From sequence record AB841354.1: a stretch of DNA of 935 bases, one strand, 5' to 3'. The notes under the pieces are model-generated. The model was not told where the DNA came from and searched no databases. It saw nothing but the letters and a program-made list of their open reading frames with translations. A program made the position numbers and the translations under genes. Positions 1 through 935 of the stretch are shown in pieces. The DNA comes from a phage. Every line of letters begins with the position of its first letter. The stretch's first letter is position 1.

Positions 1-752
1 TGACCGTAGTCGTAGCATCTGCCGGAATAGTTCGATTGAATTTGTTTTAGCGCCGGATACAGTTCGCGGAATAATGCCTGTGAGCGGTTGGCATAATCCC
101 ATAACCATACAAGGCTGTTTGCTTCTTTTGCAGAAAGCTCGTTTGCTTTCTTCTCTTGTTTGCCGATTAACTCGCCTTCAAGCACTACCCTGTGGATGTA
201 CTCTACGGCTTGCGGTATCTGAGATGCATCAAGCTCTTCAATACTTTCCACATTGAAACGCTGATGAATCATTGCATAAGCTTCTGGGTACATTAGATGC
301 TTTTTGCTGACTAGCATATTTACAGCATCACGAAGCGGAGTCCTGTCATCAACAGATGTTTTCTTACGTGCATTTCCTGCCTTTCCCTTTGTCCAGTAGT
401 CATGCAGTACAGTAAAGCATTCTTCCTGGTACTGAATCAGTTTATCGCGGATGTCAGCTCGAACTTTCTCAGGGTTGATGCTGAACAGCCATCCATTTAA
501 CTTCTTCAAAGGAAGGCAGAGTAGCTTACGAAGCTTCCCATCAGCGGCAACCATATTCATATGAATACAGTTGAACTTATCTAGTTGTTTCATAAGTTTT
601 TGTTGCTGAGTACCCCAACTCATTCCAAGGTTTTCAACGATTGGCTTCATCGCAACGTATGCAACTCCGGCAGCCATGGCGGTGATAATTTGCTGACCGT
701 TGAATGGTACGTAAGAGGTGTTCACTGCTTCTAAAATTGCTATACTATTCAT
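1..752 (-). CDS. Phage antirepressor-like protein (Ant-type), N-terminal 250 codons; 3' end of gene lies beyond the window start
   Basis: Seen in sequence: minus-strand frame is open from ATG (plus 752-750) through position 3 with no stop in 250 codons. The protein starts [105 protein letters not shown]... and is still open at ...[24 protein letters not shown] lies 10 nt upstream of the ATG, which is the first ATG after the in-frame stop at plus 831-833. Family assignment (P22 antirepressor N-terminal domain type, around the [18 protein letters not shown] segment) is from memory, not a search. Confidence is high for a real CDS, about 0.5 for the antirepressor function. Confidence 0.85.
738..746 (+). 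promoter_or_regulatory. Candidate extended -10 promoter (TGcTATACT) firing antisense to the antirepressor-like gene
   Basis: Seen in sequence: plus strand 738-746 is tgcTATACT, matching the extended -10 form TGnTATAAT at 5 of 6 hexamer positions plus the TG. There is no convincing -35 (gtgttc at 17-bp spacing), which extended -10 promoters can tolerate. Predicted start is near 753, immediately opposite the ant start codon. Sequence motif only; no expression evidence. Confidence 0.3.
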
Positions 753-762
753 GTTGGTTTTT

Positions 763-766
763 CTCC
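763..766 (-). promoter_or_regulatory. Shine-Dalgarno (GGAG) for the antirepressor-like CDS
   Basis: Seen in sequence: minus strand reads ccgtGGAGaaaaaccaacATG, with GGAG 10 nt upstream of the start codon at 752-750. The spacing is at the long end of the usual range. Confidence 0.55.
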
Positions 767-784
767 ACGGATTTACCGACAACC

Positions 785-825
785 GAAGCCCTGACTGTTC
801 CAGCAATTGGGGCTTCAACGTTTTT
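785..825 (+). terminator. Hairpin plus T-tract, candidate intrinsic terminator for a plus-strand antisense transcript
   Basis: Seen in sequence: gaagccc (785-791) and gggcttc (810-816) are perfect reverse complements, giving a 7-bp stem with 5 GC pairs and an 18-nt loop, followed by aacg then ttttt (821-825). It is non-canonical: the loop is large and a 4-nt spacer precedes the T-run. On the minus strand the same hairpin has no U-tract after it, so it is directional for the plus strand. Confidence 0.3.
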
Positions 826-935
826 CCACTTCATTTTGAATTTGCTTAAGTAGCATATTTGTCTCGTCAAGCCTCTTGTTAATACGGTCAAGGCTTTCTA
901 CTAAATCGTTATGTGCATGTAATACTTCGTAATTT
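815..935 (-). CDS. C-terminal 39 codons of a small upstream ORF, hypothetical protein; 5' end lies beyond the window end
   Basis: Seen in sequence: only one minus-strand frame is open from the window edge to a TGA stop (plus 817-815); the other two frames hit stops within about 10 codons. Translation is ...[38 protein letters not shown], helical and charged in character. It is co-oriented with the downstream gene and 62 bp from its start. No family recognised. A 39-codon open frame in AT-rich DNA has a non-trivial chance probability, hence the moderate confidence. Confidence 0.45.

Follow-up and report, generated by a model that had tools for sequence, protein, structure and literature searches.

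The 935-nucleotide stretch of phage DNA analysed here (sequence record AB841354.1), hereafter the window, carries a plus-strand unit lying between, and over, two minus-strand genes. The left-hand gene encodes an antirepressor, and a second minus-strand frame, named orf89 in this work, enters at the right edge and stops at the TGA 817..815 (...NEVEKR*). An earlier note, made from the letters of the window, had compared this unit with the sar RNA of phage P22 and, as the upstream gene does not encode Arc, had suggested an unreported variant of an antirepressor control module. The question is thus whether the unit is sar itself and whether its non-Arc neighbour makes the locus a new module.

The sar RNA of the Salmonella phage P22 has a length of 68/69 nt; by pairing with the ant mRNA it blocks the initiation of antirepressor translation, and it is needed for normal establishment of lysogeny. 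The arc and ant genes of P22 are co-transcribed from Pant, and small-RNA sequencing of P22 infection detects sar. The work on P22 sar (Liao et al. 1987, Wu et al. 1987, Schaefer & McClure 1997) is considered here as presented in papers that cite it. The features of the window are listed in Table 1.

Table 1. Features of the sar-ant region in the window, with their positions, strands and supporting details.
Feature	Position	Strand	Details
ant (antirepressor), first 250 codons	1..752	-	ATG 752..750; open past the left window edge
Predicted Psar promoter	718..746	+	-35-like GTGTTC 718-723, 17-bp spacer, extended -10 TGcTATACT 738-746; inside ant codons 2-12
sar antisense RNA (Rfam RF00262)	753..820	+	Full-length covariance-model match
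sar stem-loop 1	753..780	+	6-bp stem 753-758/775-780, 16-nt loop; Rfam structure line and MFE fold
ant Shine-Dalgarno GGAG	763..766	-	10 nt 5' of the ATG; opposite sar loop 1
sar stem-loop 2 / terminator hairpin	785..816	+	785-798 with 803-816, UCCA loop 799-802; Rfam and fold
sar 3' tail	817..825	+	AACGUUUUU, T-run after a 4-nt spacer; window sequence
orf89, 3' part (39 codons and stop) of an 89-aa ORF	815..935	-	TGA 817..815 in the 3' arm of the sar terminator stem

Identification of the sar RNA and of its target gene

A cmscan search against all Rfam families revealed a match to the sar family (RF00262) that spans the entire model (positions 1-68 of 68) and reaches 81.5 bits, against a gathering score of 43. 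The E value of 2.4e-17 places the whole unit far beyond chance. RF00262 is the only Rfam family above threshold in the window, and our own covariance model scores the same RNA at 85.5 bits. Over 68 nt, the RNA is identical to the annotated sar of phage epsilon34 at 64 positions (94%) and to P22 sar at 62. Given the RF00262 match and these identities, the element is sar itself, and more than the sar-like RNA of the earlier note; the P22 sar architecture recognised there, and the covariance-model and BLASTN comparison with P22 and its relatives by which it was to be checked, both held. Megablast of positions 1-823 gave 98% identity with the Escherichia phage vB_EcoP-611R6, 95.8% with the Salmonella phage epsilon34 and 84% with P22. 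A further match of the same hairpin, to ctRNA_pGA1, was rejected, as its 24.8 bits (E 0.017) lie below the gathering score of 45; it corresponds to a generic resemblance among antisense RNAs made of a hairpin and a U-run.

The 753-820 segment is antisense to the leader and ribosome-binding site of ant, which agrees with the plus-strand RNA of about 70 nt, covering the Shine-Dalgarno (763-766) and leader, that had been proposed; this position relative to ant counts towards its assignment to sar. The predicted start of sar is G753, the base adjoining the ant ATG, which would leave the AUG outside the RNA, and the true 3' end probably lies between 820 and 825.

The ant frame is open throughout the 250 codons present in the window. 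Its product, previously described as antirepressor-like, matches the Pfam domains P22_AR_N (152 bits) and P22_AR_C (70 bits) as well as PHROG 245 ('anti-repressor Ant'). With both domains present, the gene is classified from its sequence as a true P22-type ant. Its DNA is 98% identical to that of vB_EcoP-611R6, 96% to that of epsilon34 and 84% to that of P22, and the position of its Shine-Dalgarno agrees with the P22 and epsilon34 alignment.

We are highly confident that the unit is the sar gene of the immI region of a P22-like (Lederbergvirus) prophage, together with its antisense mechanism. As the sar RNA of P22-like phages is already known, this identification is correct but ordinary.

Structure of the sar RNA

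A 74-nt plus-strand segment folds into two hairpins at -26.2 kcal/mol (z = -3.87), with only one of 200 shuffled sequences folding as well. The minus strand has a z-score of -0.83 and folds no better than its shuffles. The 5' hairpin had been missed in the earlier two-element account of the unit, which comprised the -10 element and the terminator hairpin, both of which are present. Loop 1 carries CUCC at 763-766, the complement of the ant Shine-Dalgarno.

As for the 3' hairpin, it had been placed correctly: GAAGCCC (785-791) is perfectly complementary to GGGCTTC (810-816) and is followed by AACGTTTTT (817-825). Its description as a 7-bp stem with an 18-nt loop did not hold, as the stem comprises 13 pairs with one C795/A806 mismatch and is closed by the UCCA loop. 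The final codons of the upstream ORF, GAA AAA CGT TGA on the minus strand, provide the T-run of the tail. The two-hairpin architecture, with the compensatory changes found in homologues, is a further argument for membership of the sar family.

The A at position 806 is a private G-to-A change. It is found in none of the 210 other related loci, 160 of which have a G, and the pair at this position is C-G in P22 and in epsilon34. The mismatch could slightly weaken termination or reflect prophage decay. An inherited but non-functional sar, belonging to a decaying prophage in which either this change or the insertion of orf89 disables termination or regulation, would be in line with the uniqueness of A806, with the loss of the C-G pair and with the absence of the exact junction sequence from 185,579 species-representative genomes. 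Nevertheless, we consider this very unlikely, as the hairpin still reaches -15.8 kcal/mol with its 13 pairs, the complete RNA retains its 81.5 bits, and the -10 element, start region, anti-Shine-Dalgarno loop and T-run are intact, with ant open over all its visible codons. Moreover, at least 11 other loci and 14 complete E. coli genomes retain the orf89-sar junction, with intact neighbours.

Conservation and covariation

Homologues were gathered in two ways, by scanning IMG/VR for exact matches to the -10/ATG motif and by a protein-anchored search with Ant N-terminal sequences, and 71 distinct sequences were aligned with our covariance model. In helix 2, 99.1% of the cells are paired in these 71 homologues, and 8 of the 14 modelled pairs have changed on both sides. 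None of 500 shuffles reaches the observed covariation on any measure, and when the 3' partners are offset by one to three columns the pairing falls from 91% to 34-51%. RNAalifold recovered the same helix 2 from an independent MAFFT alignment, with compensatory changes in 6 of the 14 pairs. The hairpin is thus conserved in the manner that the earlier note had asked for, as is the -10 element (see below).

The covariance-model alignment shows stem 1 paired in 71.6% of the cells, owing to a one-base shift of some 5' variants. Both this alignment and that of MAFFT displace stem 1 by one base in the GUCAAU and GUCGU variants, and the support for stem 1 consequently rests on folds of individual sequences. 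These folds contain a 5' stem in every distinct 5' variant for which the full segment is available, with stem sequences that differ (GUUGGU/ACYGAC, GUCAAU/GUUGAU, GUCGU/ACGAU, GUCAGU/ACUGGC and GUUAAU/GUUAAC).

In all 71 sequences, the fold of the plus strand is more stable than that of the minus strand (means of -30.0 and -20.1 kcal/mol, respectively), because three conserved G-U pairs of helix 2 become A-C mismatches on the minus strand. This uniform advantage argues that the structure is selected in the plus-strand RNA.

The predicted Psar promoter

The extended -10 element TGCTATACT, noticed earlier in the first codons of ant, is present at 738-746 of the plus strand, within ant codons 2-5. 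The pattern TGNTATAMT occurs once in the window, compared with 0.10 matches expected, and at least one match was found in 19 of 200 shuffles. The region is collinear, free of gaps, with a promoter feature of epsilon34 (L002 2718-2746 corresponds to window 718-746), which the epsilon34 record annotates 'by similarity with P22 Psar', and TTGCTATACTATTCATG is the same in the window, P22 and epsilon34. The activity of Psar in the window is predicted from this homology with P22.

The protein-anchored search, being independent of the nucleotides under study, provided a sample of 46 distinct ant starts, reached through motifs of the protein remote from its N-terminus. TATACT shows no variation in this sample, and the TG ahead of it is present in 44 of the 46. 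As a result, the Ser residue is always encoded by AGT, out of six possible codons, and the Ile residue always by the rare ATA, out of three. Around the motif, the sequence drifts: codon 2 is AAT, ACA, GCA or AGC, and codons 6-10 vary too. Furthermore, TTGCTATACTnTTCATG and the terminator hairpin persist beside the antirepressor of phage EC.P3, whose N-terminal 125 residues share only 19% identity with those of the window Ant. Invariant -10 codons amid drifting neighbours, together with this persistence in EC.P3, point to selection acting on the nucleotides themselves, as would be anticipated for Psar.

These observations also bear on the possibility that the hairpin acts between orf89 and ant in the minus-strand operon, by terminating or attenuating transcription or by stabilising the mRNA, and that TGcTATACT is a by-product of coding for M-N-S-I-A in Ant. 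A hairpin does form on the minus strand, where it begins at the stop codon of orf89, and the residues S-I-A of Ant are conserved; however, conserved residues do not account for AGT and ATA in 46 of 46 starts while adjacent codons drift. On the minus strand, the hairpin is followed by GGUUGUCGG in place of a U-run, its z-score is the -0.83 given above, and it is the weaker one in all 71 homologues. A minus-strand terminator would also be at odds with the co-transcription of arc and ant in P22. This explanation is thus highly improbable, and a plus-strand sar RNA, predicted to be transcribed from Psar, is retained.

A generic sigma-70 scan of the window did not call Psar, owing to its weak -35 element, GTGTTC, and a generic terminator scan of the window did not call the sar hairpin, because the T-run begins 4 nt past the stem. 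Both misses are attributed to the limits of consensus rules and do not weigh against the elements. A single terminator-like site was called in the window, at 132-151 on the plus strand, antisense to the coding region of ant; it consists of a 7-pair stem followed by TCTCTTGTTT. With one site found and 0.7 expected, it is probably due to chance.

Proposed mechanism

Every sequence requirement of the P22 sar mechanism is present in the window, and the promoter activity, transcript ends and translational repression described here are those expected from the work on P22. RNA polymerase would start at Psar, on G753, and transcribe away from ant through its 5' leader. The transcript would end after the 785-816 hairpin, within AACGUUUUU, yielding a product of about 68-73 nt that folds into two stem-loops. 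It would be perfectly complementary to the ant leader from -1 to about -68, the CUCC of loop 1 facing the ant Shine-Dalgarno. Its pairing with an arc-orf89-ant mRNA would hide the ribosome-binding site and shut off translation of the antirepressor, and the lower level of Ant would favour the establishment of lysogeny. The target of sar would be left intact by orf89, which separates arc from sar and whose start overlaps the arc stop (ATGA). In P22, convergent transcription from Pant interferes with Psar, and sar rises once Arc shuts Pant off.

Comparison with known antirepressor control systems

The window sar resembles P22 sar in its position, orientation, extended -10 element, two hairpins and target gene family. 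Six of the 68 bases differ, among which the change of the 756/777 pair from G-U in P22 to G-C in the window strengthens stem 1, whereas the C/A mismatch in stem 2 (position 806) is not found in P22. The tail is AACGUUUUU in the window and AACUUUA in P22, and the gene abutting the terminator is orf89 in the window and arc in P22.

With regard to epsilon34 (EU570103), in which sar is annotated as a misc_RNA, the sar, Psar and ant features are collinear with window positions 754-821, window positions 718-746 and the window ant, respectively. In epsilon34, arc directly abuts the sar terminator, whereas orf89 occupies this place in the window. Phages vB_EcoP-611R6 (ON470589), EC.P3 and S.Kent 1-2-1 exhibit an arc-orfX-[sar]-ant layout, as in the case of orf89, with an inserted ORF that overlaps the arc stop (ATGA) and ends at a TGA in the arm of the sar terminator. 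The inserted ORF of vB_EcoP-611R6 encodes 73 aa (PHROG 11805) and is unrelated to orf89. In EC.P3 and S.Kent 1-2-1, orf89 itself is present, and it is the sar stem-loop 1 and the Ant N-termini that differ from those of the window. The c4 antisense RNA of phages P1 and P7 is likewise small and acts around the ribosome-binding site of an antirepressor (ant) mRNA, whose translation it blocks. It belongs to a different family, and no sequence or covariance-model relationship to the window sar was found, RF00262 being the only family that passed.

Among the annotated records examined, that of epsilon34 alone lists sar. The RNA is unannotated in L001, L003, L004 and L210 (ON470589, AF217253, PQ657771 and NZ_CP006834). 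The main value of the present identification therefore lies in annotation, as sar is unannotated in most records examined although the module occurs in about 1,120 of 5,426 E. coli genomes. It also indicates that a reading of the sequence alone can recognise a real antisense-RNA gene, and it leaves the understanding of antirepressor control unchanged.

The orf89 gene and the arc/mnt context

The homology of the window to P22 and epsilon34 ends at about position 820, just past the sar terminator stem. Beyond this point lies orf89, full-length copies of which are found in L004 (4033-4302, minus strand), L005 (1649-1918, minus strand) and L006 (8001-8270, plus strand); full-length homologues include those of phage EC.P3, S.Kent 1-2-1 and the protein clusters P0001-P0003. 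The product has a hydrophobic N-terminal segment and a heptad-rich, coiled-coil-like C-terminal half, and is predicted to be a membrane protein. It matches PHROG 27312 (unknown function), and searches of Pfam, NCBIfam and PADLOC gave no significant match, DUF1664 and DUF948 being weak and below threshold. The gene is rare: it accounts for 8 protein clusters and occurs in 14 of the 5,426 complete E. coli genomes, about 1,120 of which carry the ant/sar module.

As orf89 is cut by the right edge of the window, neither arc nor mnt is visible there and the layout was read from relatives. An Arc-family gene (PF03869) lies directly upstream of orf89 in all 11 related loci that are long enough, its stop overlapping the orf89 start (ATGA) in each. 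In the orf89 loci whose flank was examined, it is followed further out by a divergent Mnt-like RHH gene. The closest context found, the Logan contig L006, which is 97.8% identical to window 386-935, is one of these Arc-bearing loci. The presence of the Arc-family gene in 11 of 11 relatives leads to the layout mnt <> arc-orf89-[sar]-ant. By this comparison, the locus is best read as an ordinary immI region with an inserted gene rather than as a new control module. The suggestion of an unreported variant was right in that the neighbouring gene, orf89, is not arc, and fails because of the Arc-family gene found upstream of it in the relatives. Other small ORFs are commonly inserted at this spot in deposited genomes.

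A new module in which Arc is replaced by a membrane protein that does not bind DNA, with sar as the main or only regulator of ant, was rejected and is given next to no credence, because, even though the gene directly upstream of sar and ant in the window is not arc and the epsilon34 paper notes P22-like phages (CUS-3 and HS-1) with ant and no apparent arc, an Arc-family gene, whose stop overlaps the orf89 start, is found in 11 of 11 orf89 loci, L006 included, with a Mnt-like gene where the flank was examined.

Mosaicism between arc and sar

About 115 sar-bearing IMG/VR loci were examined for the DNA beyond the sar terminator, which is highly mosaic. An Arc allele abuts sar in about two thirds of the loci. 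In about one third, arc and sar are separated by a small ORF, and at least eight unrelated ORFs occur in this place (for example L061, L079, L036, L051, L013, L049 and L001). This slot extends from the 3' end of arc (...DSLKREGxxV) to the sar terminator, approximately 60-400 nt past the sar start, in loci L010-L129. One of the slot ORFs encodes a 60-aa ClpX C4 zinc finger (PF06689, 43 bits), and three others encode Cys-rich products with a similar CxxC...CxxC pattern.

On the other side of the slot, a unit made of the -10 element of Psar, ant codons 1-5 (M-x-S-I-A) and the sar terminator persists beside unrelated Ant N-terminal domains. The regions compared for this unit were window 736-752, L004 3954-3970 and L005 1569-1585, and three distinct types of sar stem-loop 1 accompany these antirepressors. 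Recombination seems to use the sar module as a joint: Psar, both hairpins and these ant codons form a conserved segment on which antirepressor bodies and upstream genes are swapped. The epsilon34 paper already ascribes high genetic flux to the 'ant moron' as a whole; the mosaicism of the slot refines this picture and does not introduce a new principle.

It is conceivable, though rather unlikely, that the arc-sar interval is a cassette-exchange slot, in which P22-like phages place varied small genes under the timing of Pant, Arc and Mnt, among them orf89, genes for ClpX-zinc-finger-like proteins and several ORFans. If so, orf89 could be an early accessory factor, involved for example in exclusion or host takeover, that is co-regulated with the antirepressor.

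Most slot ORFs, as well as some Arc alleles, stop at a TGA that is the reverse complement of the TCA in the 3' arm of the sar stem, and the last AAA (Lys) codons of the slot ORFs supply the T-run of sar. As these ORFs borrow their stop from the sar arm and their lysine codons provide the T-run, sar overlaps their 3' ends and might affect their mRNA. The shared stop lies at +62 from the sar start in the window (815-825), L001, L004-L009, L013, L023, L027, L021 and others, and P22 arc ends 6 nt further, at +68.
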